Assembly (NCBI GenBank): GCA_016867375.1
Contig: VGJQ01000003.1
Span: forward strand, 1-47,532
Length of the DNA stretch: 47,532 bases
Reading direction: 5' to 3'
Source of the DNA: Candidatus Kaiserbacteria bacterium
Lineage (GTDB): Bacteria > Patescibacteriota > Minisyncoccia > Phycocordibacterales > UBA2100
The position numbers were made by a program, and so were the translations under genes. Under the pieces are notes generated by a model. The model did no database searches. It saw nothing but the letters and a program-made list of their open reading frames with translations, and was not told the origin of the DNA. This document shows positions 10,309 to 44,099 of the stretch, in pieces (the stretch's first letter is position 1; each line of letters starts with the position of its first letter).

Positions 10309-10397
10309 AAAAGTGACACCCCTTTTGCTGAAATGATGAACATATGTCATCCTTCACTGATGATGAGGGCACCACAAAGCTCTTCGATAGTCCGTAA
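10309..10397 (+). pseudogene. orphan 5' UTR plus first 17 codons of a PduO-type adenosyltransferase gene
   Basis: It aligns by eye with 13769-13862 (aaaagtgacacc..atgatgaa..tatgtcat.cttcactg...acaaagctcttcgatagtccg). It translates to [17 protein letters not shown] and then stops. Confidence 0.75.
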
Positions 10398-10426
10398 GGA
10401 GTGCATATCAAAAAGACGTCACCTAT

Positions 10427-11071
10427 ATGATTGAACAACTCACCTCACTAATACAGCCGATTGTCGTTACGTACGGGGCCACCGGAATTCTTTTTGCCAC
10501 CCTGCTTGAGGAAGTGATTGCACCTATCCCGTCGCCATTGGTACCACTTACCGCTGGTTTTTTTCTTTTGCCGGCGGGCGCGGGCTTTTTGGAAGTGATT
10601 CGGGGAGCGCTCTTTGTTATCGCCGTGCCAGTGGCCTTTGGCATCACGCTCGGGTCTTTGGCCGTGTACGGTCTGGGTTATTGGGGAGGAAAACCCGTTA
10701 TCGAAAAAAATAAAAAATGGATTGGGTTAAGCTGGAAAGATTTGGAAAAAACCGAACAGAAGCTGACTCGCGGGAAGGGGGATGAAATCACACTTTTTGT
10801 ACTGCGCGTGTTGCCCATTGTCCCAGGTGTGGCAGTATCCGGCTTTTGCGGAATAGCACGCTATCCACTGAAGACATTTATGATCATTACGTTTGTTGGT
10901 GCATTCGTGCGCGCTGCTGCTTTGGGTGTCGTGGGGTGGTATGTGGGAGCGGCATATATGGAGTACGTCGACGTCATCTCTAAACTAGAAAAGTACTTCT
11001 TTGCTGTTGTAATCGTCTTGATATTATTCTTTGCAGGACGCTGGTACTATTTAAAAAAGATGTGCGCATAA
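10427..11071 (+). CDS. DedA/SNARE-associated family membrane protein
   Basis: 214-aa polytopic ORF with a conserved GYWGGKP-type loop. A paralog lies at 16194-16802. Confidence 0.7.
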
Positions 11072-11168
11072 TATAAATTGAGGATGTGTGTGATGGGCAC
11101 ATGTGAAAAGGAAATTTTCAGTGGCTGACGAGCGTCAGCGTACTAGCGAAGTCGGACTTCACTTAGTA

Positions 11169-12005
11169 CTAATCAAAATCGACACCCCAATATTTCTTGA
11201 ATTTTCCCTTGATCTTTTTTGCTTTCCCAGGATTTTTTTCGAGCCAGACATGTGCTTTCGTTTTTTGCTGGAAAATTGAGAGGACTGCGTGCAAATCAAG
11301 GTCATCCATTGATTTTGTACGCGCATACATATCATCTATTCGTCGGGCGATTTGTGGGTCGACTTTGACCGTGAGCACATAATCATCCACCACGTTGATG
11401 TACGTGGCCCGATCTGCCTCAAAAGGACTTTTTCCGAATGAATATACGACGGTATCTTTATCCCAAAACTTCTGTGTCCAACGATCGAGAAATGTATTAC
11501 CGCCGACGATGAGGTACAATTTTGACTTCGCCAGCTTGAGCGACTTGATGTACTGCTTTTCTTGCTTTGTCTGTACCAGGTGAAACCATGGGTGGGGATT
11601 CCAGCCCAGGAGAACTTTCTTTTCCGATTGTTGTATGAGTATCAGAAGGATGTGTGACCAAAAGTCGTTCATCTTGAGTAAATCGCTGAAATGCCAGATC
11701 TCCCGTTTGTGTTCATCGGGTAGTATCGTCGGTAGTTGCGGACGTTCGACATATTTTTTCTCGAGCGTCTGCGCCAACGCCAGGGAATCAAGTACCCACG
11801 GTAGGCGCAAACCATACATACCGCTCACCTTGAACACTACACCTTCTTTCTGGAGCTTCTTGAGTTCCTTATAAAATCCTTGCAGCGAATATTGCTTGCC
11901 GCCTGCAGCGCTTATGCTGTCTCGGAGCTGCACTACACTCTGCTCCGGCCGTTCCGCCAGCGAACGGATGATATTACTCGCCAAACTATGTTGCTTTTCC
12001 AGCAT
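11169..12005 (-). CDS. hypothetical protein with probable N-terminal winged-helix domain
   Basis: 278-aa ORF. The N-terminal 70 aa resemble a wHTH (..SLQGFYKELKKLQKEGVVFKV..). The remainder has no recognisable motif. Confidence 0.5.
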   Translation of the reverse strand: MLEKQHSLASNIIRSLAERPEQSVVQLRDSISAAGGKQYSLQGFYKELKKLQKEGVVFKVSGMYGLRLPWVLDSLALAQTLEKKYVERPQLPTILPDEHKREIWHFSDLLKMNDFWSHILLILIQQSEKKVLLGWNPHPWFHLVQTKQEKQYIKSLKLAKSKLYLIVGGNTFLDRWTQKFWDKDTVVYSFGKSPFEADRATYINVVDDYVLTVKVDPQIARRIDDMYARTKSMDDLDLHAVLSIFQQKTKAHVWLEKNPGKAKKIKGKFKKYWGVDFD

Positions 12006-12119
12006 ATTATACTATTAGTTGAAAAGAGTATGTCTATTATACATTTTGTTGAATGCCGGTCAAGGGCGTGATTTTATGTTCCCGGACGAGAAGTCCTTAC
12101 TCGAAAAAAGGAGATGTCT

Positions 12120-12476
12120 ATGTTGAGTCAGGAACATATCCGAGTACCTGGTTGCTCTGGCGTGACGGTGCGCGAGATGCCGTCCGCGCACGGGCTGCAC
12201 ATTCTCGAAGTAAATGTGGCGCCAGGCGGAGAAATACCTCTCCATACCCATGACTGCGCCGCGACCATGATTATCACGCGAGGGAGTGCATGTAAGCTCA
12301 TCTCTGGTGGTAGCGGTGATTATGTTGGCCCTGGCGACGTCGTGAGGAAAGCAAAAGGGGAGCCACATGGCTTCTCAGCAATCGGGGAAGACGGCTTCCA
12401 GTTCATTTCGTTCTCAGACGGAGACGGGATCTTGCGCGAGCACTCGGATGACGATTGGGATCTGCGCTACGTCTGA
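12120..12476 (+). CDS. cupin-domain protein
   Basis: GGEIPLHTHD...GEPHGF are cupin metal-binding motifs. The start was chosen at the second ATG, 6 nt after AAGGAG. Confidence 0.7.
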   Translation: MLSQEHIRVPGCSGVTVREMPSAHGLHILEVNVAPGGEIPLHTHDCAATMIITRGSACKLISGGSGDYVGPGDVVRKAKGEPHGFSAIGEDGFQFISFSDGDGILREHSDDDWDLRYV

Positions 12477-12529
12477 CAGATTTAATGTGTGGTGGCGGAT
12501 TAACTCTCGCCACCACCATTTTCAACACT

Positions 12530-12922
12530 ATGGTTGTCCATCATCACACTATTCTCATCGCAACGGTTCGTCGACCATCGGCGAAAATAGAATGTGGCGA
12601 TCTGGAACAATTCTTGCACCGGCTTGTAAAGCGAATCGGTATGCAGGAGCTTTTCAAACCCATCGCTATTCACGGCAAATACGGCTTTACCGGCATTGTC
12701 GGCATCGTTACGTCGCATATCGCCTTTCACTATTTCGAGGAAGACCACACGTTGCATTTCGACGTGTACAGTTGTAAACCATACGATATTGATACGCTGC
12801 TGAAATTCATTGACGAATACTGGGGCATCGAGCATGGCGAGATATTATTTGTAGATAGGGAAACGCTTTTCGATGTGAAGCGGTACTCATACTCCGCAGG
12901 AAGACTGGCAGAGGTGAGGTGA
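12530..12922 (+). CDS. S-adenosylmethionine decarboxylase-like (SpeH/class 1 pyruvoyl) protein
   Basis: GFTGIVGIVTSHIAFHYFEE..HFDVYSCKP parallels the ..ESHisiHTWPE..DvftCG signature. It has T-S instead of E-S at the presumed cleavage site. The start is set at MVVHHH. Confidence 0.55.
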   Translation: MVVHHHTILIATVRRPSAKIECGDLEQFLHRLVKRIGMQELFKPIAIHGKYGFTGIVGIVTSHIAFHYFEEDHTLHFDVYSCKPYDIDTLLKFIDEYWGIEHGEILFVDRETLFDVKRYSYSAGRLAEVR

Positions 12923-12963
12923 TGGATTGCATTGCCGCCATCCTTATAAAATAACCAAGAAGT

Positions 12964-13752
12964 ATGGAAACATTCCCGGATCCTCACATAGCCGACGTGG
13001 CACAGGAGTATACAAAAAAGGGATTGAAAGATGCCGACATTCAGACACTACAAGATGTCGTAGGCAACGACGCTGCGCGATTCCGCCGCCTTGCGCAACG
13101 ACGACTTTTTGGGGAGCCGTTTGCATACATATTCAACAAAGCTGATTTTCTCGGGCATAGCTTGTATGTCGATCGGCGTGTCTACATTCCCAACCAGGAA
13201 ACCGAGAAAATGGTGCGCGCAGTAATCGAGACAATGCCTGATGATGCGACAGTGGTGGATGTCGGGTGCGGTTCGGGCGCTATAGCGAGTGCCATCAAAC
13301 TCGCCAAACCACATGCGAAGGTATTTGCGGTAGACATCGACCCGCGGACGCTCGATGTAGCCCGCTTGAATGCGCAAAATCTCGGGGCGTCGGTTGAATG
13401 TATGGAAAGTTATTATGTGGACGATCTCTATATCGCTTCTCCTGATTTTTGCATAGCCGATCTGCCGTACGGAGACAAGCATACGATTCTCGATACGAAC
13501 GTGCCGCAAGAAATTCCTCATCTACCCCCGACTTCTTTTTGGCATCCACTAGGAACACTAAACGCTTACCAAGAACTCATACAGTCCATCGCGCGGAAAA
13601 AATGGAGCACCACGCTCTTTTTTGAGACCGGTAAAGTGGATGGAGAATGCGTTTCCGCCATCATTCCGCAGTATTTGCGATGGGAATATATACGTACGGA
13701 TCCGGCATATTCGTATACGAAAGTATATTTTACGGGTGTAAGCGAACAGTAG
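12964..13752 (+). CDS. HemK/PrmC-like class I SAM-dependent methyltransferase
   Basis: SAM-binding VVDVGCGSGAI. The catalytic tetrad reads DLPY instead of NPPY. Confidence 0.6.
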   Translation: METFPDPHIADVAQEYTKKGLKDADIQTLQDVVGNDAARFRRLAQRRLFGEPFAYIFNKADFLGHSLYVDRRVYIPNQETEKMVRAVIETMPDDATVVDVGCGSGAIASAIKLAKPHAKVFAVDIDPRTLDVARLNAQNLGASVECMESYYVDDLYIASPDFCIADLPYGDKHTILDTNVPQEIPHLPPTSFWHPLGTLNAYQELIQSIARKKWSTTLFFETGKVDGECVSAIIPQYLRWEYIRTDPAYSYTKVYFTGVSEQ

Positions 13753-13805
13753 CCACAAGAGGAAATGAAAAAGTGACACCTCCTTTTTACTGGTATGATG
13801 AATGT

Positions 13806-14390
13806 ATGTCATTCTTCACTGGCAAAGGGGATGGGGGTACTACAAAGCTCTTCGATAGTCCGCAGGGCGTACGCGTCACAAAATCGTCGCCCATTTTTGA
13901 ATGTCTTGGTCAGCTCGATGAACTCAACACGATCGTGGGATGGTGCAAGGTCGGGTGTCCAGAGGATTTTGTCGTGGATGAGGTGCGGGGTGCGCAGATA
14001 CTCAGCGGTGTGCAGGATCATCTTTTCACGATTCAGGCCGAGGTCGCCGGAGCACCCAAATCCGTGCCGCAGGAACGTGTGGAAGTGCTCAGTGCACTCA
14101 TCACATCCATCGAGTCACAGCTTCCCGAAGTGAAGAGTTTTCTCGTGCCGGGCGGGACGGAGTTGTCCGCCCGACTCGACATCGCGCGCGCTGTCTCGCG
14201 CCGTGTCGAGCGCCGTCTCGTCACGGTGCATGAGTCCGGCGATCCCTCGAATCCCTCGGGACAAGGACGCATCATATCGGAGGGGAGTCGCGCGTATGCA
14301 AATAGACTCTCGTCACTTTTCTATGCACTCACTCGATTCGCAAATCACCGCGCGGGAGTGGTAGAGCGGCCGCCGGAATATCTCACCTGA
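13806..14390 (+). CDS. ATP:cob(I)alamin adenosyltransferase, PduO type
   Basis: MSFFTGKGDGGTTKLF..LGQLDELN signature. The ORF-track start at 13647 is an upstream read-through extension. Confidence 0.8.
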   Translation: MSFFTGKGDGGTTKLFDSPQGVRVTKSSPIFECLGQLDELNTIVGWCKVGCPEDFVVDEVRGAQILSGVQDHLFTIQAEVAGAPKSVPQERVEVLSALITSIESQLPEVKSFLVPGGTELSARLDIARAVSRRVERRLVTVHESGDPSNPSGQGRIISEGSRAYANRLSSLFYALTRFANHRAGVVERPPEYLT

Positions 14391-16863: not shown

Positions 16864-17070
16864 ATGGAAGATCAGGAACTAGCTCGCCGACTCGATGAGA
16901 TGATGGCAAAGCTCGACGCCGTCTATGCTTCGTCTGAAAAGACGCGCAAGCTGTTCGTGGCGATGATTGTGATAGCCATTATCGCTTTTGTGCTTCCTTT
17001 GATCGGACTGCTCTTTGCGGTACCTGCGTTTCTCTCGACATACGACAGTATCGCGAATATCGGCATGTAG
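16864..17070 (+). CDS. small membrane protein
   Basis: 68-aa ORF with one long hydrophobic segment. Confidence 0.4.
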   Translation: MEDQELARRLDEMMAKLDAVYASSEKTRKLFVAMIVIAIIAFVLPLIGLLFAVPAFLSTYDSIANIGM

Positions 17071-17119
17071 CCACCCTATTTATTGTTTATCATTATTATT
17101 TATAATCACATCATTCATT

Positions 17120-17938
17120 ATGGAAGACATGAATCAGCGAAAAGATTTACACATTCATCCGCCGCAGGTGATTGTCACGCTCGCTGCCGTGGCACTCGGC
17201 ATGCTCGCACTCTTTCTCCTCATACTTACGGTGAGCGAGTTGCGCGGGTACAAATATATCGGTGCAGGCATCAGTCCGACCAATACGATCTCCGTTTCGG
17301 GAGAGGGTGAGGTATTTGCGGTGCCCGACACGGGCGAATTTAGCGTGACCATCCAAGAAGAGGCAAAAGAAGTCGCGAAGGCGCAGGATGAAATGGCAAA
17401 GAAGGCAAATGCAATCATGGCGTATCTCAAAGGTGCGGGTGTTGAGGAGAAAGACATCAAGACCACCGACTACAACGTATCTCCGCGATATGAATGGACG
17501 CAGGGTATCTGCACAGGTGGCTATTGTCCGCCCGGCAAACAAAATCTCATCGGATTCCAGGCTTCCGAGACGATCAATGTAAAGGTGCGTGACACGCAGA
17601 AAGCTGGTGAACTCCTCTCGGGAGTCGGTGGCAAGGGCGCTTATCAGGTGAGTGGTCTCTCATTTACGATCGACGACGAAGATGCTCTCAAGGCAGAGGC
17701 GCGCGACAAGGCGATCGAGCAGGCAAAGGAGAAGGCTGATGTACTCGCCAAGTCGCTTGGCGTGTCGATCGTGCGCGTCGTTGGCTTCTATGAAAATGAA
17801 GGAGGTTATCCCACTCCGATGTATGCGCGCGCGGATATGGCTATGGGCGGCAGTATGGAAAAGGCTGTTGTACCGGAGATCGCTGTAGGGCAGAACAAAA
17901 TCATCTCCAATGTTAACGTGACCTACGAGATCAGATAA
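17120..17938 (+). CDS. SIMPL/DUF541-family secreted protein
   Basis: TM anchor followed by ISVSGEGEV.AVPD...GFQASETINVKVRD...KAIEQAKEKADVLAKSLG, typical of the SIMPL family. Confidence 0.7.
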   Translation: MEDMNQRKDLHIHPPQVIVTLAAVALGMLALFLLILTVSELRGYKYIGAGISPTNTISVSGEGEVFAVPDTGEFSVTIQEEAKEVAKAQDEMAKKANAIMAYLKGAGVEEKDIKTTDYNVSPRYEWTQGICTGGYCPPGKQNLIGFQASETINVKVRDTQKAGELLSGVGGKGAYQVSGLSFTIDDEDALKAEARDKAIEQAKEKADVLAKSLGVSIVRVVGFYENEGGYPTPMYARADMAMGGSMEKAVVPEIAVGQNKIISNVNVTYEIR

Positions 17939-19078: not shown

Positions 19079-19624
19079 ATGGCACGACAAACACATGGTA
19101 GCGAGAGACAGTGGTATGCAGTCCATACCTATTCAGGATATGAAGACGCGGTTGCGCGCAATCTCAAACAGCGTATCGATTCTTTTGGAATGCAGGAACA
19201 GATTTTCCAGGTGGTAGTCCCGATCGAAAAGAAGATCAAGATCAAAAACGGCCGCAAGACCGAGATCAAGGAAAAGATCTTCCCGGGCTACGTGCTTGTC
19301 GACATGATCGCGACCGACGATGCGTGGAGTGTCGTGCGCAACACGCCCCAGGTCACCGGATTCGTCGGCACCGCCAATCAGGCAGTGCCGCTGGCACAGG
19401 CAGAGGTGGACAAGATCCTCAAGCGCGCCGGTGGTGACACGGTCCGTCATGCGATCGATCTCGCGGCAGGCGAGGCGGTCGTCATCATCGATGGACCGTT
19501 TAAAGACCTCGAGGGTAAGGTAGGGGAGGTCGACGAAGAGCGCGGCAAGGTCAAAGTCATGGTCCCGATGTTTGGCCGCGAGACTCCCGTAGAGCTCGAA
19601 GCCGACCAGGTGCAGAGGGTTTGA
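19079..19624 (+). CDS. nusG: transcription antitermination factor NusG
   Basis: WYAVHTYSGYE NGN domain and a KOW motif (GPFKDLEGKV). Confidence 0.9.
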   Translation: MARQTHGSERQWYAVHTYSGYEDAVARNLKQRIDSFGMQEQIFQVVVPIEKKIKIKNGRKTEIKEKIFPGYVLVDMIATDDAWSVVRNTPQVTGFVGTANQAVPLAQAEVDKILKRAGGDTVRHAIDLAAGEAVVIIDGPFKDLEGKVGEVDEERGKVKVMVPMFGRETPVELEADQVQRV

Positions 19625-19625
19625 C
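19599..19625 (+). repeat. 27-nt exact direct repeat, copy 1 (3' end of nusG including the stop)
   Basis: aagccgaccaggtgcagagggtttgac, identical to 21528-21554. Confidence 0.95.
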
Positions 19626-19710
19626 GAAAGTTGTCTGTAAGGGTAACCTGACGATGGCTGATTTCGGCTACCCGGCGCTGGCGCCGGTTCACTGATGAAC
19701 GGAGACCGAT

Positions 19711-19992
19711 ATGACCCTAATGGTTCAAACTTCTGATGGAAATGGAGTTGAGGCACGATTTACCCACAGTTGCCCTACGTCTCTTATGTGTGATGGTGTG
19801 CAAATAGGGGACGTTGAGATTCCGCTCGAAGATTTTGTCGCGATGGCAGTGCACTTTCTTTCCGGCGGCTTCTTCGACTGGAATAATGGCGAAACTCCTT
19901 CCTCCGTAAATGAAGCACTCACTACGTTGTTTGCGCGATATTATTGGATCGACGGGAGATGGGTACTCAAAAAAGACGCCACTGTGTCATAG
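19711..19992 (+). CDS. hypothetical protein
   Basis: 93-aa ORF followed by a strong hairpin plus T-tract at about 20013-20057. Confidence 0.45.
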   Translation: MTLMVQTSDGNGVEARFTHSCPTSLMCDGVQIGDVEIPLEDFVAMAVHFLSGGFFDWNNGETPSSVNEALTTLFARYYWIDGRWVLKKDATVS

Positions 19993-20046
19993 CTGTTTCC
20001 TTGTTTAGTTAACCCCGACCCCGCAGTAACCATCTGTTAAGGGTCG

Positions 20047-20075
20047 GGGATTTTTCTTTGGTGAAATGGTGTAAT
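20047..20075 (+). promoter_or_regulatory. extended -10 promoter (TGGTGTAAT) within a 24-nt repeat
   Basis: gggatttttctttggtgaaatggt is identical to 20574-20597. The -10 ends 8 nt before the ATG at 20084. Confidence 0.5.
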
Positions 20076-20083
20076 GAGTGGGT

Positions 20084-20495: not shown

Positions 20496-20499
20496 CATT
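20473..20499. repeat. perfect 27-nt palindrome P3 (aatgtcaaaagtc-t-gacttttgacatt)
   Basis: 13-nt arms around a 1-nt centre, read directly. Confidence 0.95.
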
Positions 20500-20602: not shown

Positions 20603-20608
20603 AGCTGC

Positions 20609-34304: not shown

Positions 34305-34479
34305 CCAAGTCGAGATCGGCACGCCCGTGTGCATCACGATCGACTTTGATACGCTCGGCGACCCTTCGATAGGCTCAGGGCAGGGAACCGGCCGCAAAGA
34401 CACGGTCACCGTCCGCAATCGCGATACGGGGGAGCAAAAAAGGGTAAGAGTGGGGGATTTGACTTCCTATCTCAAATAG
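34305..34479 (+). pseudogene. orphan diverged copy of the glyQS 3' end
   Basis: It translates to ..[44 protein letters not shown]. Compare the glyQS C-terminus [49 protein letters not shown]. Confidence 0.85.
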
Positions 34480-34492
34480 ATTACCAATAGCC

Positions 34493-34765
34493 TTGGGAAA
34501 ATCCCGTAGCAGGAGAAAGAAGATGTCTAAGGTGATTATCGATCTCGGCTCAAGGCGGCGAGCCAAAATTGGAGATAGGGTTTTGGTTCTCGCAAAAGAA
34601 ACAATCAAGGGCGAAGACAGGGGTAGTTTGCACTTAGGTACCTTCAGAGCGTTCCCCCCAAAAGGGGAGAACAACCCCATAATTCAGCTCGACGACATCA
34701 AAAGATTTCGTCGGGGCAAGCGTGAAATCGTGGGGCATATTCCATTGTCCGGAGAAATCAAATAG
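34493..34765 (+). CDS. hypothetical basic protein
   Basis: 90-aa ORF followed by terminator T2. Confidence 0.4.
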   Translation: MGKSRSRRKKMSKVIIDLGSRRRAKIGDRVLVLAKETIKGEDRGSLHLGTFRAFPPKGENNPIIQLDDIKRFRRGKREIVGHIPLSGEIK

Positions 34766-34788
34766 GCGTGCCACGCCTTCAGCTGTTA

Positions 34789-34827
34789 CCCCGCGCCAGA
34801 GCAATCCGGCGCGGGGTGATTTTTTGT
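34789..34827 (+). terminator. intrinsic terminator T2
   Basis: ccccgcgcc-loop-ggcgcgggg followed by tgattttttgt. Confidence 0.7.
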
Positions 34828-37384: not shown

Positions 37385-37852
37385 ATGGCACATATACATG
37401 AAAAGATCGATTTCACTATCAGTGTTATGGTTGTCGATAATGGAAAGGTATTTCTGCATAAGCACAAGAAACGCGGTATTTGGCTCCCACCTGGCGGACA
37501 TATAGAGCTCGATGAAGATCCTAATCAGGCGGCGCTGAGGGAAGTAAAAGAAGAGGTTGGTTTCGACGTAGACCTCGTAGGAGGCTCGCGACTGCCGTTT
37601 ACTTTTACCAACGGCACACAAGATCTCGTGCCGCCGATGTTTCTCAATAGGCATCGCATCAGCGAGACACATGAACATGTCGATCTTCTCTATTTTGCCC
37701 GCTGTGTAGGTGGAGAGCTTGTGCCCGAGGAAGAGGGTATTGAAATGCGATGGTTTACAGAAGACGAGATTAAGGTCAATGCCGAGGGTATTCACGAAGA
37801 TGTGCAAGTATACGCTCTGGCGGCACTCAAGCACTTTAGGGATAATTTATAA
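37385..37852 (+). CDS. NUDIX hydrolase
   Basis: Nudix box GGHIELDEDPNQAALREVKEEVGF. Confidence 0.85.
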   Translation: MAHIHEKIDFTISVMVVDNGKVFLHKHKKRGIWLPPGGHIELDEDPNQAALREVKEEVGFDVDLVGGSRLPFTFTNGTQDLVPPMFLNRHRISETHEHVDLLYFARCVGGELVPEEEGIEMRWFTEDEIKVNAEGIHEDVQVYALAALKHFRDNL

Positions 37853-37857
37853 TAAAT

Positions 37858-38115
37858 ATGCCATATATTCCACAGTCAGATCGAACAAAGTTCGACGATG
37901 CTATCACCACACTCAAGCCCGAAAAGGCGGGGGAGCTCAATTACATCATCAGTCGCCTCTGTGCCGACTACATCGCCCGCATGGGCAAGAAATATGCCAC
38001 TCTCAACGAAGTGATGGGCGTCCTCACGTGTGCCGCGTCCGAATTCTACCGCCGCCTTATCGCACCCTACGAAGATGAGAAGATCAAATCAAGCGGGGAT
38101 ATCGCAGGTTACTAA
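37858..38115 (+). CDS. conserved hypothetical 85-aa protein (intact paralog of 40528-40877)
   Basis: MPYIPQSDRTKFDD...LNYIISRLC...EFYRRLIAPYEDEKI. It starts 5 nt after the nudix stop. Confidence 0.6.
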   Translation: MPYIPQSDRTKFDDAITTLKPEKAGELNYIISRLCADYIARMGKKYATLNEVMGVLTCAASEFYRRLIAPYEDEKIKSSGDIAGY

Positions 38116-38208
38116 CTATGACGGTGTATAGGGTTGGAACGAGTTGCCAGCAGGACTTGTATAGGTTACAAAGGGGTTAGTTTTGTTCAAAAAAGAAGGA
38201 ACAAAAGA

Positions 38209-38847
38209 ATGAAAGAGGTGATTCAGAAGGTGGAAGAAGCGGTCCGTGAGTTCATGGCAGTGCAGGATAAGGCCCATGACTGGCATCATATCCATCGGGT
38301 GCGCACAATGGCGTTGCGGATTGCTGCATTTGAGGGAGGCGATACAGAGCTCATCGAACTCGCGGCGCTCGTCCACGATGTCGGCGATTATAAGTTCCAT
38401 GAGAGCAAGGAAGTGGGCGAGCAAGCCGCAGTCGATCTCATGGCACGTTATGGCGTCCCACAGCGGATGGTTGAGAAGGCGGTCGATATTATGCGGCGCG
38501 TGTCATTCAAGGGTCTCGATGTTGCCGACGACATGCCGACACTTGAGGGAAAGATCGTGCAAGACGCGGATCGTCTCGATGCGATTGGCGCGATCGCGAT
38601 CGCGCGCACTTTCACGTATGGCGGCACCAAAGGTCGATCCATGCATGATCCGGATGCTCCGCTCACGATACGTTCTTCCGAAGAATATTTGATAGGAAAC
38701 CGTTCGAGCATTCACCACTTCTTCGACAAACTCTTGCATCTGAAGAATCGACTGCATACGAAGACCGCACGAGAGATCGCGACCGAACGACATACCTTCA
38801 TGGAAGAGTTCATCCGCCGTTTCTTAAGAGAATGGGATGGCAAATAA
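38209..38847 (+). CDS. HD-domain phosphohydrolase
   Basis: HDWHHIHRV ... LVHDVGD ... DADRLDAIGA motifs. Confidence 0.8.
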   Translation: MKEVIQKVEEAVREFMAVQDKAHDWHHIHRVRTMALRIAAFEGGDTELIELAALVHDVGDYKFHESKEVGEQAAVDLMARYGVPQRMVEKAVDIMRRVSFKGLDVADDMPTLEGKIVQDADRLDAIGAIAIARTFTYGGTKGRSMHDPDAPLTIRSSEEYLIGNRSSIHHFFDKLLHLKNRLHTKTAREIATERHTFMEEFIRRFLREWDGK

Positions 38848-38880
38848 TAGAAACAGCCCGGCGTTCATACGTCGGGCTGT

Positions 38881-38931
38881 TCACTTTTGTTTCTTGGGTG
38901 CTTGTGGCGCGTTGCGGTCGAGACAGACGCG
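38881..38931 (-). pseudogene. orphan 3' end of a paralog of the 87-aa gene at 41673-41936
   Basis: The minus strand reads RVCLDRNAPQAPKKQK*, versus ACLDRNAPMRPKKQK* at the end of 41673-41936. It shares the adjacent terminator sequence. Confidence 0.75.
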
Positions 38932-38989
38932 TAAGGGCGCGCGCGTTTCTAACAAACCAGCTCTTCAGATATTTGTGTGGACCGCGCGG

Positions 38990-39418
38990 TCAATCGCTTT
39001 TCTTGAGATACTCCACGATGTGCCGCAGGTAATCTCGGTATTGGCCGATCTCGTGCGATATGTCGTCCACCATGCGAACGATATCCACTTTGCCGTAGCG
39101 ATGTACGACGAGATTGCGCAATCCGACGGAAGGCGCAATGCGTCGCGCGAAGTTGTCCGGCAACATACCGCGCTCACCGATCGTTGTGAATGTGCTTTGG
39201 TAATCATCGGGCGCAGGAAGATTCGAAGATGCGATGATGTGCGTGTTGATGTCGATGGCGCAGTCGACGATGAGTTGAAAGAGCCGCTCCACGGTGTGCA
39301 ATTTGAAATTGTCATGCACAATCTCGCGCGTGCCAAGGGCGAGTGTCGGTTCGAGTTCGGCGAGATATGCCTGCATGTCGGCCATCTTCGTTTCCACAAG
39401 ATTTTTGTCGAACGTCAT
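38990..39418 (-). CDS. hepT: HepT (DUF86/HEPN) RNase toxin
   Basis: GLRNLVVHRY RNxxxHxY motif. Confidence 0.8.
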   Translation of the reverse strand: MTFDKNLVETKMADMQAYLAELEPTLALGTREIVHDNFKLHTVERLFQLIVDCAIDINTHIIASSNLPAPDDYQSTFTTIGERGMLPDNFARRIAPSVGLRNLVVHRYGKVDIVRMVDDISHEIGQYRDYLRHIVEYLKKSD

Positions 39419-39825
39419 ACGGCGGGTGCGGCGAGGAACGCGTCAAGCGACGCGCGGCGCAAATCGCGCAACGGTTTTGTCTCCACGAATCGCTTGAAAG
39501 CATACATACCAAACCGAGCGAAAACATGCGGTTCGCGCTCGTAAAGAAGTATCCCTTCTGAGGCGTGTTTTTGCAAGAGGGGGGATGCGCTGCGTATGTC
39601 GACGACGTCCGTTTCTATACCGATGCGTTCTCCGATTTCGTACGCCATTTCCGCCAAATCGAGTGGCGAGAGCGGGCAATCGGCTTGCACAGCGATATCC
39701 GCATCGCTTCCCGCGTGTGTGCGCCCTGTCGCCTGCGAGCCGAATAACACAGCGAAAGATACCCCGTATCGGGGCGCGATCGTCTCTATTGCCGCGCGCG
39801 CCTCACTGATCTCAATCTGCTTCAT
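39415..39825 (-). CDS. mntA: MNT-type nucleotidyltransferase antitoxin
   Basis: LFGSQATGRTHAGSDADIAV. 4-nt overlap with hepT. The start is taken at MKQIEIS rather than the track start at 39912. Confidence 0.8.
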   Translation of the reverse strand: MKQIEISEARAAIETIAPRYGVSFAVLFGSQATGRTHAGSDADIAVQADCPLSPLDLAEMAYEIGERIGIETDVVDIRSASPLLQKHASEGILLYEREPHVFARFGMYAFKRFVETKPLRDLRRASLDAFLAAPAV

Positions 39826-39905
39826 GTAGACATTATACCATATCAACGGAAAAGTTATGCCGAACCAAAAGTTGACTTTTTCGTCAACAAAAGTACACTT
39901 TTGGT

Positions 39906-40187
39906 ATGGCAAAGATCACTGTCTCAGATTCCAATATTGGCCTCAAAGAGTTGCGCGACAATGTCGATACATACATCGCGGCCGTAAAAAAGGGTAAGAA
40001 GTTTACCGTCTACCGACATTCAAAGCCGGTGTTTGCCATCGTGCCTCCCGAGGAGGTCGAATACGACCTCGATGAGCTCGACGGTCCGGGATGGAAGACG
40101 TTGATTGATTTTACAAAGATTCGCAAGGGCGGGGTCCCGGCCGAAGAGGTGCTTGCTGCTATCGACCGTGTGTATGGACAGAGTTGA
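39906..40187 (+). CDS. Phd/YefM-like antitoxin
   Basis: LKELRDNVDTYIAAVKKGKKFTVYRHSKPVFAIVPPEE pattern. It overlaps the downstream toxin gene. Confidence 0.65.
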   Translation: MAKITVSDSNIGLKELRDNVDTYIAAVKKGKKFTVYRHSKPVFAIVPPEEVEYDLDELDGPGWKTLIDFTKIRKGGVPAEEVLAAIDRVYGQS

Positions 40188-40407
40188 AAAATTCATACGC
40201 AAAGTCGGTAAAGATCGTGCGCCCTCCGTCAGAGCGATTATCGCGAGGATAGTTGTAAACGATCTTGCAGGTTTGGATGTCCGAAAACTCAAAGGTAAGG
40301 ATTTTGAATATCGTATTCGTGTCGGCCGCATCCGCATCAAATTTGTTCGTAGTGCCTTGGGTAATAATGAGGTCATCGACATCACTTTCCGCGATAACAA
40401 CACGTAA
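40174..40407 (+). CDS. RelE/ParE-superfamily toxin
   Basis: 77 aa with LKGKDFEYRIRVGRIRIKF, matching the RelE-like L.G....yRiRvGdyRi motif. Confidence 0.65.
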   Translation: MDRVEKFIRKVGKDRAPSVRAIIARIVVNDLAGLDVRKLKGKDFEYRIRVGRIRIKFVRSALGNNEVIDITFRDNNT

Positions 40408-40412
40408 GGGTA

Positions 40413-40455
40413 TTAAAAGGCGACGCCTTTTAGGCAAAAAGGCGTCGCCTTTTTC
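40413..40455 (+). terminator. long inverted repeat / terminator
   Basis: aaaaggcgacgcctttt-aggc-aaaaaggcgtcgccttttt. Confidence 0.6.
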
Positions 40456-40527
40456 TCGCCCCCCTAACCCCTCTCGACTGCCCGACGCAAACATGCGTCG
40501 TGTCGCCTTTTAATATATAATCCTCAC

Positions 40528-40877
40528 ATGCCCTATATCCCACAGTCAGATCGTACAAAGTTCGACGATGCCATCACGGCGCTCAAGCCCGAAAAGACGG
40601 GGGAGCTCAATTACGTCATCAGTCGCCTCTGTGCCGACTACATCGCCCGTACGGGCACAGGGTACGCCAATCTCAACGAGGTGATGGGCGTCCTCACGTG
40701 TGCGTCGGTTGAGTTTTAGGTCCCGTTCATAAATAACTGCAACACAAAATGAACGGGCCCATAAGTGTAGTCCACAAATAACGGGTACGTTAATTTGTGG
40801 ACGAGCCCTTACCGCCGCGTGGTGGCCCCGTACGAAGATACAAAGATCGCATCCGATGGCGATATTAAGGGATATTG
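40528..40877 (+). pseudogene. paralog of 37858-38115 disrupted by a 91-bp insertion
   Basis: Collinear with the intact paralog up to ..SVEF, then TAG from the insertion. The remainder, YRRVVAPYEDTKIASDGDIKGY*, resumes after the element. Confidence 0.85.
40719..40809. mobile_element. 91-bp MITE-like element with TA target-site duplication
   Basis: TA at 40717-40718 and 40810-40811. Removing the element plus one TA restores gag ttt tac cgc cgc = EFYRR as in the paralog. Imperfect terminal inverted repeats and two internal hairpins (40722-40757 and 40770-40802). Confidence 0.8.
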
Positions 40878-40934
40878 AGATGATGCGGACTCTTGCATTT
40901 GTGCAAAAGATATAGTGTGATACAGTTTCGTCAT

Positions 40935-41156
40935 ATGGAACGAGAGTACACGGCAGTAATAAAAAAAGAGGGTTCATGGTACGTCGCGTGGCTTGAAGAG
41001 GTGCCAGGCGTCAATACGCAAGGTCGGACGCTCAAAGAAGTGCGCGAGAACTTGAAAGATGCGGCGATGTTGCTGTTTGAGGTCAATCGCAAGATCTCTC
41101 GCGCCCATGGCCGCGGAGTCATACACGAGCCGTTGCGCATCACGGTGGCGGCATGA
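40935..41156 (+). CDS. hicB: HicB-like antitoxin
   Basis: YTAVIKKEGSWYVAWLEEVPGVNTQGRTLKEVRENLKDA pattern. ATGA overlap with hicA. Confidence 0.7.
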   Translation: MEREYTAVIKKEGSWYVAWLEEVPGVNTQGRTLKEVRENLKDAAMLLFEVNRKISRAHGRGVIHEPLRITVAA

Positions 41157-41350
41157 AGCGGGCAAAACTGGTGGCATACCTCGAAGAAAAAGGATGCCTA
41201 CTCATTCGTGAGGGGGCGAAGCATTCGGTTTTTATAAACATGAATGCACAACTCTCCTCAACAGTCCCTCGACATCGCGAAATAAGAGACGCTCTTGCCG
41301 GTAAGATATGCAAAGATTTAGGTATTCCAAAAATCCGCCAAGGAAAATAA
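41153..41350 (+). CDS. hicA: HicA mRNA interferase toxin
   Basis: KLVAYLEEKGCLLIREGAKHSVF...VPRHREI pattern. Confidence 0.75.
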   Translation: MKRAKLVAYLEEKGCLLIREGAKHSVFINMNAQLSSTVPRHREIRDALAGKICKDLGIPKIRQGK

Positions 41351-41359
41351 ACAGCAATT

Positions 41360-41587
41360 ATGTCCTGGCATTTTGCACTTATAAATAAAAGGCTGGCGGA
41401 ATTCTTTTTCAAAAAGAAATGCGGTCGAATCATGCCGCAAGGTCATTGTTATATGACTCGCGAAAACTGTGACACAGCAGAAGAACAGAAGTGGATAGAT
41501 GAAGATATCAAAAAGCATAGTTTCACATACCGAAGTGGAAAATATCGGCATATCCCCACTGGAAAGATCTTTTCCAGGCACACTTGA
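41360..41587 (+). CDS. hypothetical 75-aa protein
   Basis: AT-rich ORF with no recognisable motif. Confidence 0.35.
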   Translation: MSWHFALINKRLAEFFFKKKCGRIMPQGHCYMTRENCDTAEEQKWIDEDIKKHSFTYRSGKYRHIPTGKIFSRHT

Positions 41588-41640
41588 TGGAACAGTTTCT
41601 CAAACAATGTATGAAAGAGTGGAAAGGTAACGACGTGTAG
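41587..41640 (+). pseudogene. orphan 3' end resembling the HD-hydrolase gene terminus
   Basis: MEQFLKQCMKEWKGNDV* versus the HD C-terminus EEFIRRFLREWDGK*. It is followed by the same terminator sequence as at 38850-38885. Confidence 0.5.
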
Positions 41641-41672
41641 AAACAGCCCGACGGATAGGTGCGTCGGGCTGT

Positions 41673-41936
41673 TCACTTTTGTTTCTTTGGCCTCATTGGC
41701 GCGTTGCGGTCGAGGCACGCACGTTCGACTTCGGGGAGGTGGCAAAATGTCTCTACTGCCTGCTCCTCCTGTCCTTCCGGCACGGCGACGCACAGCGGAG
41801 GGTAGTATCCGCCATAGGCATCGTGGATCACGGTGTATCCATACTGCTCGATGATAGCGACGGCCTGCCGGTATGAGACGCCGTCCCGAAAGATGACCAG
41901 GATGCGCCCTGGTAAGTATTCTGGATCGCGTGTCAT
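41673..41936 (-). CDS. hypothetical 87-aa protein
   Basis: ORF with its terminator. The 3' end is duplicated at 38881-38931. Confidence 0.5.
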   Translation of the reverse strand: MTRDPEYLPGRILVIFRDGVSYRQAVAIIEQYGYTVIHDAYGGYYPPLCVAVPEGQEEQAVETFCHLPEVERACLDRNAPMRPKKQK

Positions 41937-41994: not shown

Positions 41995-42825
41995 ATGAAA
42001 TACTTCGACGCACATACACATGTACAGTTTGCCGCTTATGATGTCGATCGTGCAGAGACTGTCGCGCGGGCGCTTGAGGCAGGAGTGGGGATGAATGTCG
42101 TGGGGACGCAGATCGATACTTCGCGTGCTGCGCTCGCGGTGGCGCAGCAGTACGATGGTGTGTGGGCGACGATCGGTCTGCACCCGGTACATACCAGTAA
42201 GTCATATCACGATACCAAAGAGCTCGGGGAAGGTGGGCAGGAGTTTACTTCGCGTGGCGAAGTGTTTGATTTTGCCGCGTACGAAGCGCTCGGCCGGGAC
42301 CCAAAAGTGATCGCCATCGGCGAGTGCGGGCTCGACTATTATCGCGTCGACGAAAGCACCAAGGCGATCCAGGTGGAGACCTTTGTGCAGCAGATTGAAT
42401 TGGCCAATGCACTCGGCAAGCCCCTCATGCTCCATATCCGCAACGGGGTGGGGGAGGCCAATGCCTATCTCAATGCACTTGAGCTCATCAAATCACATGC
42501 GAAGGTACAGGGTGATGTACACTTCTTCGCGGGGGATTGGGAGATCGCGCAGAAGTTTCTCGATAGTGGCTTCACACTCTCATTCACCGGTGTGGTCACG
42601 TTTACCCATGATTACGACGAGGTGGTGCGCAATACGCCACTCGACATGATCTTGTCTGAGACCGATGCTCCCTACATCACACCGGTGCCTTATCGCGGCA
42701 AGCGCAACGAATCGGCATACATTCCGCACATCGTCGAAGCAATCGCCCGGATTAAGAGTGAGGATATTGAGACAGTGCGCACACAACTGCTCGAAAATGC
42801 GCGGCGTGTGTTTGGTGTAACTTGA
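41995..42825 (+). CDS. tatD: TatD-family metal-dependent DNase/hydrolase
   Basis: FDAHTHVQF HxH start, GECGLDY, TDAPY motifs. The track start at 41833 is an upstream extension. Confidence 0.85.
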   Translation: MKYFDAHTHVQFAAYDVDRAETVARALEAGVGMNVVGTQIDTSRAALAVAQQYDGVWATIGLHPVHTSKSYHDTKELGEGGQEFTSRGEVFDFAAYEALGRDPKVIAIGECGLDYYRVDESTKAIQVETFVQQIELANALGKPLMLHIRNGVGEANAYLNALELIKSHAKVQGDVHFFAGDWEIAQKFLDSGFTLSFTGVVTFTHDYDEVVRNTPLDMILSETDAPYITPVPYRGKRNESAYIPHIVEAIARIKSEDIETVRTQLLENARRVFGVT

Positions 42826-42906
42826 CGTAGGGCTCTATTTATATTATTTTCACGTGAGGCTACACAACCTTTGGTCTCTTACAAAATACAACTTACGGAG
42901 GTAGCG

Positions 42907-43962
42907 GTGAAGACCTACATTCTCAATACGGGCGGAACGCTCGGGATGGTGGGTAAACCACTTCGTCCCGCGAAGTCCGCAAAGGAACTACTGGAGGGTA
43001 TTAATGTACCGTCTGGAATTGAGATTACGTTGGAAGACTTTCCACTTCGGCAAGATTCGACCAATGTGATGCACAAAGATCGCGTCCAAATGGGTGAGTT
43101 GATCGCCACAGTTTATGACGAGCATGATGCGTTCGTTGTTCTCCATGGCACCGACTCTCTCGCCGAGACGTGCGCGTTCTTCTCGATGCTGTTTAAGCTC
43201 TCACTCCAGAAACCTCTGTTCGTCATTGGTGCGCAGATGAGTAAGGACGAGAGCGGTACCGACGTACCGATGCAGATTGCAAACACGTTACGGGTAGCTG
43301 ATGCTTTCATCCATAACAATGTTGTGGGTGTGTACAGCGTTTGTATTGGCGATGTCCTTCACGGCGCAAGGGTGCGCAAGCGGCGCGATTCGGACTTCTC
43401 AGCGTTCTACACGCCGGGGATTTATCCCGTTGCTCAGGCATGGCCGCATGTGCTCATTCAGGAATGGGCACGAAAAAAGGATGGCGTTCTCGAAGTGCAG
43501 GGGCTACGCCTCGATTCGCAGTTCGAGCAACAGGTTGCGATCATAATTGTTTCTGCCGACAGCCCGCCCTACATTCTCATGGACATGGTGAAGGCAGGGA
43601 AAATCCGAGGCGTGGTTCTGGAGTGTAAAGGGGCGGGCAATGTTCCCGACCGTGTTTGGGACTTTGCTGACGAGGGTTCCTACTCGTGGATTGACGCGAT
43701 TCGTGCGGCTACACAAAAAGGAATTCACGTCGGAATCCTCTCACCGTTTGAGGACGGACGTGTCGAACTTGAGCGCTACGAACTCGGTCAGAAGGCGAAG
43801 GAGGCAGGGGCAATCAGTCTTGAGAGTCTCACCCCGGCGATGGGCGATGTGAAGCTTCGGCAAGCCATTGCCATGCATCCAGAACATCCTGACCGGATCC
43901 AGCGGTTCATCTCCACAAACATTCTCGGCGAACTCTTGCCGGGATTTGTGAACGAACGCTAA
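42907..43962 (+). CDS. L-asparaginase, type I-like
   Basis: NTGGTLGM and LHGTDSLAET motifs. GTG start 6 nt after GGAGG. Confidence 0.75.
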   Translation: MKTYILNTGGTLGMVGKPLRPAKSAKELLEGINVPSGIEITLEDFPLRQDSTNVMHKDRVQMGELIATVYDEHDAFVVLHGTDSLAETCAFFSMLFKLSLQKPLFVIGAQMSKDESGTDVPMQIANTLRVADAFIHNNVVGVYSVCIGDVLHGARVRKRRDSDFSAFYTPGIYPVAQAWPHVLIQEWARKKDGVLEVQGLRLDSQFEQQVAIIIVSADSPPYILMDMVKAGKIRGVVLECKGAGNVPDRVWDFADEGSYSWIDAIRAATQKGIHVGILSPFEDGRVELERYELGQKAKEAGAISLESLTPAMGDVKLRQAIAMHPEHPDRIQRFISTNILGELLPGFVNER

Positions 43963-43981
43963 TTGGTTTGCAATTCATTAA

Positions 43982-44020
43982 GGACTGGTTTAGGTATTCC
44001 CTAGGCCAGTCCGATTTTTT
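43982..44020 (+). terminator. intrinsic terminator
   Basis: ggactgg...ccagtcc followed by gatttttt. Confidence 0.65.
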
Positions 44021-44028
44021 ATCAAAAG

Positions 44029-44099
44029 GTGAGGATGTCGAGGTGGTGCGCACACAACTGCTCGAAAATGTCCGGCGTGTGTTTGCAGTTAGGATTTGA
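44029..44099 (+). pseudogene. orphan copy of the tatD 3' end
   Basis: GEDVEVVRTQLLENVRRVFAVRI* versus the tatD C-terminus SEDIETVRTQLLENARRVFGVT*. The core gtgcgcacacaactgctcgaaaatg is identical. Confidence 0.85.

Follow-up and report, generated by a model that had tools for sequence, protein, structure and literature searches.

The stretch of Candidatus Kaiserbacteria bacterium DNA analysed here (the window; assembly GCA_016867375.1, contig VGJQ01000003.1, positions 1–47,532, forward strand) belongs to a small genome and contains borders of conserved genes into which toxin-antitoxin (TA) modules and a few metabolic genes have been inserted, each insert being flanked left and right by a fragment of the adjacent gene. 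On balance, we favour reading each site as the scar of a recombinase-independent insertion at a core-gene border. Repeat pairs were recovered by self-BLASTN and gapped alignment, and gene identities were obtained by Pfam. A first-pass annotation had placed five repeat pairs here, each with one in-frame and one orphan copy; all five are real and lie at or near where it put them (BLAST E 2e-6 to 3e-16), and the division into in-frame and orphan copies is borne out. Six such pairs in 47.5 kb compare with 12 pairs in 2.06 Mb across 167 related loci (Poisson P 5e-7), a scar density ~22-fold higher. The repeats vary in length from 27 nt to ~1.1 kb, and an exact-identity run of 20–34 nt lies inside every pair. 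Comparison of the repeats of the five cases found no core common to all sites, and no inverted repeats were found. It had also been claimed that no recombinase is encoded in the window, and family searches across the 47.5 kb agree, with no cassette gene matching an integrase or transposase family. No family could be detected for the 278-aa and 210-aa proteins mentioned below, whose structure models (pLDDT 36 and 40) are unusable. The five cases comprise the following features.

10289–10435, plus strand: case i orphan (left) copy, upstream region and first ~27 codons of cob(I)alamin adenosyltransferase
10427–13752, no overall strand: case i cargo, VTT/DedA, 278-aa gene (minus strand), cupin, AdoMet decarboxylase-like and methyltransferase genes
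13749–13901, plus strand: case i functional copy, upstream region and start of the intact adenosyltransferase
19599–19625, plus strand: case ii repeat 1, in-frame nusG end (last 8 codons and stop), containing GGGTTTGAC
19626–21527, plus strand: case ii cargo, 93-aa gene without assignment, MNT, truncated HepT (20368–20496), MNT, HepT
21528–21554, plus strand: case ii repeat 2 (orphan), followed by the 210-aa gene (21595–22227) and rplK (22305–22727)
33272–33697, plus strand: case iii unit 1, in-frame glyQS 3' end (to 33425), 60-aa membrane ORF (33472–33654), terminator
33694–34301, plus strand: case iii cargo, RHH-like antitoxin candidate and MazF/PemK toxin
34305–34827, plus strand: case iii unit 2, orphan glyQS 3' end (34305–34479), ORFan 80-aa ORF (34523–34765), terminator copy (34789–34827)
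37843–38932, plus strand: case iv unit 1, DUF6899 (37858–38115), HD gene (38134–38847), bidirectional terminator, orphan 3' fragment of an 87-aa gene
38933–40510, no overall strand: case iv cargo, HepT/MNT (minus), Phd and RelE-like gene (plus)
40511–41724, plus strand: case iv unit 2, second DUF6899, HicB/HicA (40893–41350), orphan HD 3' end (41538–41600), terminator, 87-aa-gene 3' end
42754–42854, plus strand: case v repeat 1, in-frame tatD end (last ~22 codons) and 30 nt
42855–44025, plus strand: case v cargo, asparaginase gene with its own leader and terminator
44026–44112, plus strand: case v repeat 2, orphan tatD 3' end and downstream sequence

The repeats of case i are ~75% identical (E 3e-16) with a 6-nt in-frame indel. 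The orphan, positioned just after tRNA-Leu, carries a two-codon deletion and a premature stop, and its end is overlapped by the start of the VTT gene (10427), while the intact adenosyltransferase gene occupies 13806–14390 and its N-terminus agrees with relatives (MxFxTGKGDGGTTKLF). A free-standing LAGLIDADG endonuclease (9463–10131) adjoins this site. In the relative L164 the cargo is missing and the adenosyltransferase directly follows tRNA-Leu. In case ii the repeats are identical at 27 of 27 positions and consist of the last 8 nusG codons, the stop and 1 nt; a second 27-nt repeat lies 5' of each MNT gene (20047–20073 and 20574–20600). These repeats are real but bracket only part of the insert, with the 210-aa gene between repeat 2 and rplK, and in L164 and L166 rplK comes directly after nusG.

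Case iii (33272–33409 versus 34305–34463; 69% identity, E 1.5e-14, 21-nt in-frame indel) is likewise a real pair, but one larger than first described, taking in a small gene and a terminator that is also duplicated (33662–33697 versus 34789–34827, 85%). The small ORF differs between the two units, and the orphan reading frame is open up to its own stop at 34479. Unit 1 is colinear with L081, where glyQS, the small ORF and AI-2E lie in order without the insert; the cargo is also missing from L002 and other relatives. The orphan has a 7-codon loop insertion, 21 of whose first 25 nt match the distant relative L010, a feature that simple in situ duplication does not account for.

The repeat pair of case iv (38742–38932 versus 41538–41724; core 81% identity, E 5e-14) is real and forms the right end of a degraded unit of ~1.1 kb. 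The first 63 codons of DUF6899 (37843–38048) recur at 40511–40718 (87%, E 9e-62), and this second copy falls inside what had been delimited as the cassette. It is broken after codon 63 by a ~105-nt hairpin element (40719–40822), shows purifying selection, and has a 3' part closer to L155 than copy 1 is, which points to a foreign allele or gene conversion. The convergent 87-aa gene is intact at 41673–41936 (minus strand), and its orphan 3' fragment lies at ~38880–38932 (minus strand). In L081 the terminator and the 87-aa gene come immediately after metG, the HD gene and the TA cargo both being absent from this site, and relatives of HicBA and Phd/RelE occur elsewhere within the metG–tatD interval of L002 and L083. 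The case v repeats are 88% identical in their core (E 6e-13). Repeat 1 holds a promoter-like TTGACG-17-TATTTT overlapping the tatD stop codon, and repeat 2 a promoter-like TTGACT-17-TATCCT before a 122-aa ORF and rpsF; in L002 rpsF follows tatD and the site is empty.

Comparison with related genomes upholds the view that these are genuine insertions at core-gene borders, the sites being empty in L164, L081, L002/L168 and many Parcubacteria. Backbone gene order is kept in more than 25 Parcubacteria loci, and per-gene identities are mosaic, showing that homologous exchange among lineages is frequent. The cargo is mobile: homologs of the asparaginase (81–89% aa) are found in three other contexts among relatives, and the asparaginase unit (42870–44020) aligns at 81% nt with L169, in a different context there, the alignment stopping ~5 nt short of the orphan start (44026). 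The same layout is seen at recA of L002, where a 151-nt repeat of 95% identity surrounds a 298-aa gene. The stop codon is the end of this repeat and of repeats ii and iii.

The junctions were compared with independent Logan contigs from SRR16108666 and SRR7985589, which are 99.9–100% identical to the window. The contigs from these two samples span most junctions: cases i, iii and v are crossed at both junctions and cases ii and iv at the left one, and the right-hand repeat copy of case iv and its join to tatD are covered from 40784 onward. Individual contigs span the cargo of case i (L172) and case iii (L161) and support unit 1 of case iv (L174) and the cargo of case v (L162 and L163). An assembly artefact, in which the assembler joined strain variants or a separate circular element through k-mers that they have in common, would fit the positions of the contig breaks, which lie in the DUF6899 repeat (37946/37975), at 40433/40784 and 8 nt short of the second nusG repeat, and the joints at 40433–40784 and 21520–21560 therefore rest on the window assembly. 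We nevertheless regard an artefact as highly improbable, given that single contigs in two different runs carry both copies for i, iii and v and also cross the left joint in ii and in iv, and that most repeats, at 69–88% identity, are too diverged to mislead a k-mer assembler.

The age of the copies was addressed by a three-way branch analysis, in which private substitutions of the orphan, the in-frame copy and a relative were counted by codon position. Those private to truncated orphans are uniform (10/13/14, P 0.70), as against 4/1/13 for the in-frame copies and 10/4/30 for the relatives, and the in-frame branch (18) is much shorter than that of the relative (44; P 0.0013). Orphan per-site divergence (12.7%) is near the third-position divergence of the in-frame copies (13.4%), and the orphans branch off the in-frame copy later than its split from the nearest relatives. 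From the evenness of these substitutions and the late branching, it follows that both copies were nearly identical at each event, the orphan then decaying neutrally. This result suits target duplication, displacement of a gene end, or Campbell integration from a close relative equally well.

Such neutral decay from a near-identical start could also follow ordinary local tandem duplication, by unequal crossover or slippage, with cargo inserted later into the dispensable junction. Case iv does resemble a ~1.1-kb tandem duplication, and a further pair (3320–3463 versus 4173–4316) lies where two candidate paralogous membrane-protein genes are clustered in tandem. We think this unlikely, since each of six sites would need two events, duplications of this type free of cargo were not seen in the window or the closest relatives, and in cases ii and v the cargo exactly fills the gap between complete repeat copies. 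About equally doubtful are integrase-less mobilisable islands, akin to CIMEs, with att sites in gene ends and a tyrosine or serine recombinase supplied from another part of the genome. The motif GGRTTTGAC occurs five times in the window against 0.67 expected, always within repeats ii, iii and v, the short and exact 27-nt match of repeat ii resembles an att core, and in L164 a ~18-nt duplication of the tRNA-Leu 3' end flanks a small insert. However, the motif overlaps the nusG and tatD stop codons and the −35-like TTGAC, so that a promoter is the simpler reading, and cases i and iv lack a common motif. The range of repeat lengths also counts against this model, no integrase lies within the 47.5 kb despite at least six events, and the allele resembling relatives in cases i and iii is that of the in-frame copy, which is thus not an element-borne replacement.

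Somewhat less improbable, though still not the reading we prefer, is a circle carrying one copy of a core-gene end, derived for example by excision between flanking repeats in a donor, which integrated by a Campbell-type single homologous crossover in the same gene end and regenerated the flanking repeats. The layout agrees with such a product in every case, and the model would explain why the orphan and ORFan lie to the right of MazF in case iii, this being a circular permutation of a natural order of gene end, small gene, terminator and TA module. The exact runs in every pair could support RecA pairing, the mosaic identities are as expected of frequent exchange among lineages, and the second DUF6899 copy and HD' look like foreign alleles. 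Against this, the inferred crossovers are all forced to the extreme edge of homology, the orphan branches are neutral and short so that a diverged donor copy is unneeded, and transformation delivers linear, single-stranded DNA. Insertion by circles had been the mechanism first suggested; its genuine border insertions and mobile cargo stand, but no circular junction or excision polymorphism was found in the available contigs and no core is common to all sites, leaving a circular single-crossover model compatible but unproven.

In integrase islands and CIMEs that occupy the 3' end of a tRNA or protein gene, gene-end direct repeats flank the accessory DNA and the target gene is intact. The present sites share these properties, but have no integrase nearby, no core common to all sites and repeats of up to ~1.1 kb, and in one case it is a 5' end, together with its promoter, that is duplicated. 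When a circular molecule such as a suicide plasmid integrates by a Campbell-type single crossover, the homology–insert–homology product has an identical topology, although no replicon, circular form or donor was identified here.

The earlier proposal of a novel general capture mode was too strong, as similar scars without mobility genes have been described. Insertion with long target duplication is known for restriction-modification (RM) genes (PMC2853133; Furuta et al., 2010, citing Nobusato et al., 2000), where inserts of a few kb without integrase or transposase are flanked by direct repeats of >30 bp and variable length, which may extend into the 3' end of the adjacent gene, and a related genome has one copy and no insert. 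The present sites are alike in their repeat-flanked inserts, empty relatives, absence of integrase or transposase and addiction-type cargo. They differ in that the cargo is TA modules and metabolic genes in a CPR (Kaiserbacteria) host, most repeats are old and diverged (69–92%, against >90% identity for the majority of the RM repeats listed), six or more events fall in 47.5 kb, and several repeats end exactly at a stop codon. In rhs/CDI/T6SS loci, C-terminal displacement and orphan 3' ends are put down to homology-facilitated illegitimate recombination, in which the DNA that arrives is anchored in a conserved gene and shifts the resident 3' end downstream, and repetition builds arrays without a recombinase (PMC5361080 and references therein). 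Here too a gene end and cargo would be brought in and the resident end displaced as an orphan without a recombinase, but the ends are those of housekeeping genes (nusG, glyQS, tatD and the adenosyltransferase 5' end), there is no polymorphic toxin domain, and the displaced and functional ends were near-identical at the event, unlike the different alleles of those loci. The scar type thus has precedents at RM and polymorphic-toxin loci, and the novelty here lies in its cargo, host and density.

Under the preferred reading of recombinase-independent insertion, DNA originating in a close relative or in another part of the genome would be joined into the chromosome with its cargo (TA modules, the asparaginase gene or the five-gene set), most likely via illegitimate or homology-facilitated illegitimate recombination after DNA uptake. 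Competence and recombination genes have been reported in Patescibacteria (PMC12455944). Case v has 3–4 nt of microhomology and case ii has none, with no convincing example at any joint, and we infer the joining chemistry, the uptake route and the selective filter set out here. The L010-like loop of the glyQS orphan and the L155-like 3' part of the second DUF6899 copy also count against this reading. A target stretch of 27 nt to ~1.1 kb would be left on both sides of the cargo, carrying the gene end with embedded promoter or terminator signals; the copy that keeps the core gene intact would then be held by purifying selection and the other would decay as a pseudogene. Promoter-like sites are present in both copies of repeat v; the overall promoter scan gave no enrichment over shuffles, which leaves the argument from promoter retention weak. 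In a gene-dense genome such as this, insertions by which a gene end is deleted or split, or which part the next gene from a promoter within the upstream 3' end, would be lost, so that the survivors may be biased towards duplicated gene ends.

All five repeat pairs described in the first-pass annotation were recovered when the window was compared with itself, and in every pair one copy is still in frame as part of its core gene and the other is a detached orphan, as had been claimed. Pfam searches confirmed the adenosyltransferase, NusG, the HD protein and the convergent 87-aa gene among the core genes, and VTT/cupin/AdoMetDC/methyltransferase, MNT/HepT, MazF, Phd, HicA/HicB and asparaginase among the cargo; the identity of glyQS and tatD comes from precomputed Pfam matches on retrieved Logan contigs. 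The repeats are ~87–207 nt long in cases i, iii, iv and v and 27 nt in case ii, and the inserts measure 0.6–3.3 kb.

Repeat pairs bracketing the five cassettes (window coordinates, left copy and its partner)
Case i, adenosyltransferase (cobAT): 10289-10435 and 13749-13901; ~75% identity, E 3e-16
Case ii, nusG: 19599-19625 and 21528-21554; 27/27 identical
Case iii, glyQS: 33272-33409 and 34305-34463; 69% identity, 21-nt in-frame indel, E 1.5e-14
Case iii, terminator pair: 33662-33697 and 34789-34827
Case iv, HD/87-aa: 38742-38932 and 41538-41724; core 81% identity, E 5e-14
Case v, tatD: 42754-42854 and 44026-44112; core 88% identity, E 6e-13

The original outline needs correcting for cases ii, iii and iv. 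In case ii the 27-mer does bracket the toxin–antitoxin (TA) cargo, but compared with relatives the insertion is larger and adds a 210-aa gene outside the repeats, between the second nusG repeat and rplK (22305-22727). The glyQS-end pair of case iii likewise stands, but the terminator is duplicated too; the small ORF differs between the units. Unit 1 has a membrane ORF of 60 aa and unit 2, beside the orphan, an ORFan of 80 aa; a homolog search with the latter for a donor context returned only the query itself. The case iv pair is real, but forms the right end of a ~1.1 kb unit: codons 1–63 of the DUF6899 gene are present a second time at 40511-40718 (87%, E 9e-62), where an element of ~105 nt with hairpin ends interrupts the copy, which continues from 40810.

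This element (40719-40822) carries hairpins near both ends (CCCGTTCAT..ATGAACGGG; GTCCACAAAT..ATTTGTGGAC, ending GAGCCCTTA) and its point of entry into the DUF6899 copy is a TA. The stretch separating rplK from the AAA_28 3' end holds a related copy of ~65 nt (22783-22846), and the element looks like a MITE or an IS200/IS605 derivative. The pair 22796-22868 and 40760-40834, considered as a further orphan gene end, was ruled out as being this same element. Within cassette ii, a 27-nt sequence (26/27) precedes both MNT genes (20047-20073 and 20574-20600) and the first HepT is shortened to 42 codons (20368-20496), which suggests that an MNT/HepT module took in a second one and that a similarly short duplication arose with it. 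The glycyl-tRNA synthetase of the window (31899-33425) has a ~60-residue insertion (~residues 113-170) that is absent in L081, a relative's contig, and in several other relatives.

Logan contigs from two sequencing runs (SRR16108666 and SRR7985589) match the window at 99.9–100% identity. They cover both copies of case i (L172 and L173) and the whole of cases iii (L161) and v (L162 and L163); L162 and L163 also carry the right-hand case iv repeat copy and its join to tatD (from 40784). The left joints of cases ii and iv are found in L001 and L174, respectively. Of the junctions for which the first-pass annotation called for validation, both copies of i, iii and v and the left joints of ii and iv are thus spanned. 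Breaks in the Logan contigs fall within the DUF6899 repeat, at 40433/40784 and, ahead of the second nusG repeat, at a distance of 8 nt, so the last two joints come from the window assembly alone. An assembly artefact is an explanation of the repeat pairs that we regard as extremely improbable.

The source organism belongs to the Parcubacteria and is Kaiserbacteria-like. Its best reference genome is L002/L168 (JACROD010000014; MetG 61% identical), and the order argS-ileS-recO-672aa-glyQS-AI2E-metG-tatD-rpsF-ssb-rpsR-efp is conserved in >25 loci. Empty sites, a check proposed earlier, with one repeat copy and no insert, came from closer relatives in metagenomes: L164 (i, ii), L081 (iii) and L002 (v), which are not conspecific (61–88% protein identity). 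In L164 (DUF2914 83% aa), rplS, tRNA-Leu and adenosyltransferase follow in succession, as do nusG-rplK-AAA_28-argS; in L081 (MetG 88% aa), glyQS is followed by a 62-aa ORF, a terminator and AI2E; in L002, rpsF comes right after tatD. For case iv, L081 has the terminator and the 87-aa gene directly after metG and lacks both the cargo and the HD part of the repeat. What lies in the metG-tatD interval and at the nusG-rplK joint varies from one relative to the next (HicBA in L002, 74–75% aa; Phd/RelE in L083, 72% and 48% aa; a 770-bp insert in L168); these are recurrent insertion sites.

Several further observations concern these neighbourhoods. A free-standing LAGLIDADG endonuclease gene (9463-10131, GC 42%) lies beside case i, between rplS and tRNA-Leu; L164 lacks this gene and has a gap of 41 nt, and a 91-aa remnant is kept in another relative, L166. 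In L164, the closest relative, ~18 nt of the tRNA-Leu 3' end (CCCCCTGGGCACAAAAC; ~3583-3600) are repeated at ~3765-3785 after a ~180-nt GC-rich insert, an att-like or target-duplication scar. Contig L139 has a 38-nt direct repeat (95%; 7319-7356 and 7982-8020) around one minus-strand ORF of 196 aa; immediately upstream, the glyQS position is occupied by a 471-aa ORF (5872-7287), and the hotspot may thus have received a further insertion of this type. In the Parcubacteria contig L027, glyQS and metG each follow a copy of one ~110-nt leader (6759-6868, 9915-10027), which includes an N-terminal 'IDSPRPISNG' extension.

The layout recurs in the related genome L002, where the last 46 recA codons are duplicated 1.1 kb apart (19987-20137 and 21101-21251, 95% identity) around a 298-aa gene with no known family, next to a MazF-like gene. 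At one set of thresholds, the 47.5 kb of the window yielded six repeat pairs, and 167 related loci totalling 2.06 Mb yielded 12 (Poisson P 5e-7), the recA pair among them. Background pairs in L122, L047, L009 and L008 were rejected as insertion scars, being internal gene repeats or paralogs. Elsewhere in the window, a truncated PIF1-like helicase fragment (2807-3286) is followed by an orphan (92%; 3320-3463 vs 4173-4316) made of the 3' end and 75 nt downstream of a 144-aa membrane-protein gene (3807-4241), of which a second small membrane-protein gene at 2121-2522 may be a paralog.

Asparaginase homologs (81–89% identity) occur in three other contexts:
L169: after a holB-like gene
L170: between rplJ and a NUDIX gene
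L171: between DivIC and glutaredoxin
The window from 42870 to 44020 aligns with L169 at 81%, asparaginase terminator included, and the alignment ends ~5 nt short of the tatD orphan; this cargo is mobile. Upstream of the cassette in L169 (~1290-1380) lies a fragment (FNLKYHLVWATKYRKPVL) similar to the N-terminal part of an IS200-like TnpA.

The age of the orphans was approached through their substitutions. Pairwise differences between the repeat copies fall mostly at third codon positions (omega ~0.2), and each difference was therefore assigned to a branch with the help of the closest relative's ortholog. For cases i, iii and v, the truncated orphans provide 291 nt. Changes private to the orphan are uniform over codon positions (10/13/14, P 0.70), those private to the in-frame copy number 4/1/13 and those private to the relative 10/4/30. 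An origin of the orphans from diverged functional alleles, as omega would imply, was dropped for i, iii and v, since the branch analysis puts the signal on the in-frame branch. That branch is much the shorter (18 changes vs 44 for the relative, P 0.0013), which places the separation of orphan and in-frame copy later than the split from L081/L164. The orphan's per-site divergence (12.7%) is close to the third-position divergence of the in-frame copy (13.4%), so it has been free of coding constraint for nearly the whole age of the pair. Together these results mean that the copies were nearly identical at each event. Only event ii is recent; the other four are old.

Some sequences depart from this pattern. 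Changes in the second DUF6899 copy (3/2/10 by codon position) show evolution under purifying selection, and the 3' part of that copy and the HD orphan are closer to the L155 and L002 alleles than copy 1 is. The glyQS orphan has an eight-residue loop (DPSIGSGQ; 34359-34394) with 21 of its first 25 nt common to the distant relative L010, against 66% identity in the flanking coding sequence. The loop and the case iv alleles do not fit plain in-situ duplication. Tandem duplications unrelated to the cargo are in our view quite improbable. Per-gene identities to three relatives, including L164 and L168, are mosaic (DUF2914 83/69/63%, SIMPL 62/63/81%, cobAT 77/77/77%): the SIMPL gene (16909-17938) is 81% identical to L168 and 62% to L164, and DUF2914, the cobAT neighbour, 83% to L164 and 63% to L168. 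Exchange among lineages is therefore common.

In agreement with the earlier statement that no recombinase is encoded, the cassette genes and unknown ORFs match no integrase, transposase or resolvase family in Pfam, NCBIfam or PHROGs, and no tyrosine or serine recombinase occurs within the 47.5-kb window. No family was found for the 278-aa and 210-aa cargo proteins; PDB sequence searches gave chance-level matches only, and single-sequence structure models were unusable (pLDDT 36 and 40). A DNA transposon or IS is not indicated, as no inverted repeat pair surrounds any cassette and the duplications, spanning 27 nt to ~1.1 kb, lack a fixed short length. Nor is an integron array: there is no integrase match, and the cassettes are scattered among core genes and edged by gene-end repeats, not by a common hairpin site. 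An Rfam scan of the window returned four tRNAs and nothing else.

An integrase acting in trans would leave a common site, and a k-mer search found no core common to all repeats. The motif GGRTTTGAC does occur five times in the window (19617, 21546, 33401, 34455, 44092; 0.67 expected), always inside repeats ii, iii and v, but it is absent from i and iv, and with no recombinase in the window we consider such an enzyme quite improbable. The motif overlaps the stop codons of nusG and tatD and a -35-like TTGAC, and is probably a -35 box overlapping gene ends, a reading that we favour over a recombination site. Both copies of repeat v have promoter-like sites, pointing at the cargo and at the next native gene; overall, the promoter scan gave no excess over shuffles. 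The stop codon marks the end of repeats ii and iii and of the L002 recA repeat. Microhomology at the joints amounts to a possible 3–4-nt overlap (AAAG/AAG) in case v and none in ii, the other joints being too decayed to judge. As regards a homologous anchor on the other side, with a donor-type tract in the core gene, identity followed in a sliding profile through glyQS has no step and no recombination breakpoint at the repeat edge, and cobAT stands equally far from three relatives (77/77/77%), unlike the adjacent DUF2914 gene (83/69/63%).

Insertion with long target duplication has been described for restriction-modification genes without mobility genes, defined by direct repeats >30 bp, a related genome with one copy and no insert, no mobility gene and an insert <20 kb (PMC2853133). 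Here too there are empty related sites, no mobility genes and inserts <20 kb, and the repeats exceed 30 bp in i, iii, iv and v, with case ii (27 nt) just below. The sole difference is the cargo, which comprises TA modules, asparaginase and metabolic genes; restriction-modification cargo was a screening criterion of that study, not a mechanistic feature (PMC2853133). Gene-end displacement at rhs/CDI/T6SS loci, attributed to homology-facilitated illegitimate recombination (PMC5361080), has this topology too. [quoted passage not shown] A gene-dense genome with signals inside its gene ends would then filter out all but the duplicating insertions. Competence has been reported for Patescibacteria (PMC12455944); of the competence-type genes considered in the window (comEC, pili, recA), pilM only was found. 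The Campbell-type integration of a circle proposed in the first-pass annotation would give the same product topology and would account for the permuted order in case iii, but the retrieved contigs show the integrated form only, and we hold it to be rather unlikely. The novelty suggested for the scar has to be narrowed, as the type is already known from restriction-modification genes, but we found no report of it in CPR genomes and a survey of horizontal transfer in Patescibacteria does not mention flanking duplications. What is notable here is the density, the involvement of housekeeping-gene ends and the use as a countable signature.

CPR/Patescibacteria genomes are small and apparently have few recognisable mobile-element genes, yet accessory genes are gained. 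The window documents at least six gains at essential-gene borders without a recognisable recombinase, and extends the restriction-modification scar type to toxin–antitoxin and metabolic genes. A simple explanation of the pattern by selection also suggests itself, namely that the signals in gene ends are needed by both the cargo and the next gene. A bolder and distinctly improbable reading is that CPR core-gene ends serve as homology-addressed attachment sites without a recombinase: cassettes would loop out as circles through their repeats, spread to related cells and re-enter by single crossover at the same end, the duplicated end being the cargo promoter. If this were true, the scar would be product and vehicle of mobility at once. 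Orphan gene ends offer a countable signature by which such gains can be found and dated in metagenome-assembled genomes.
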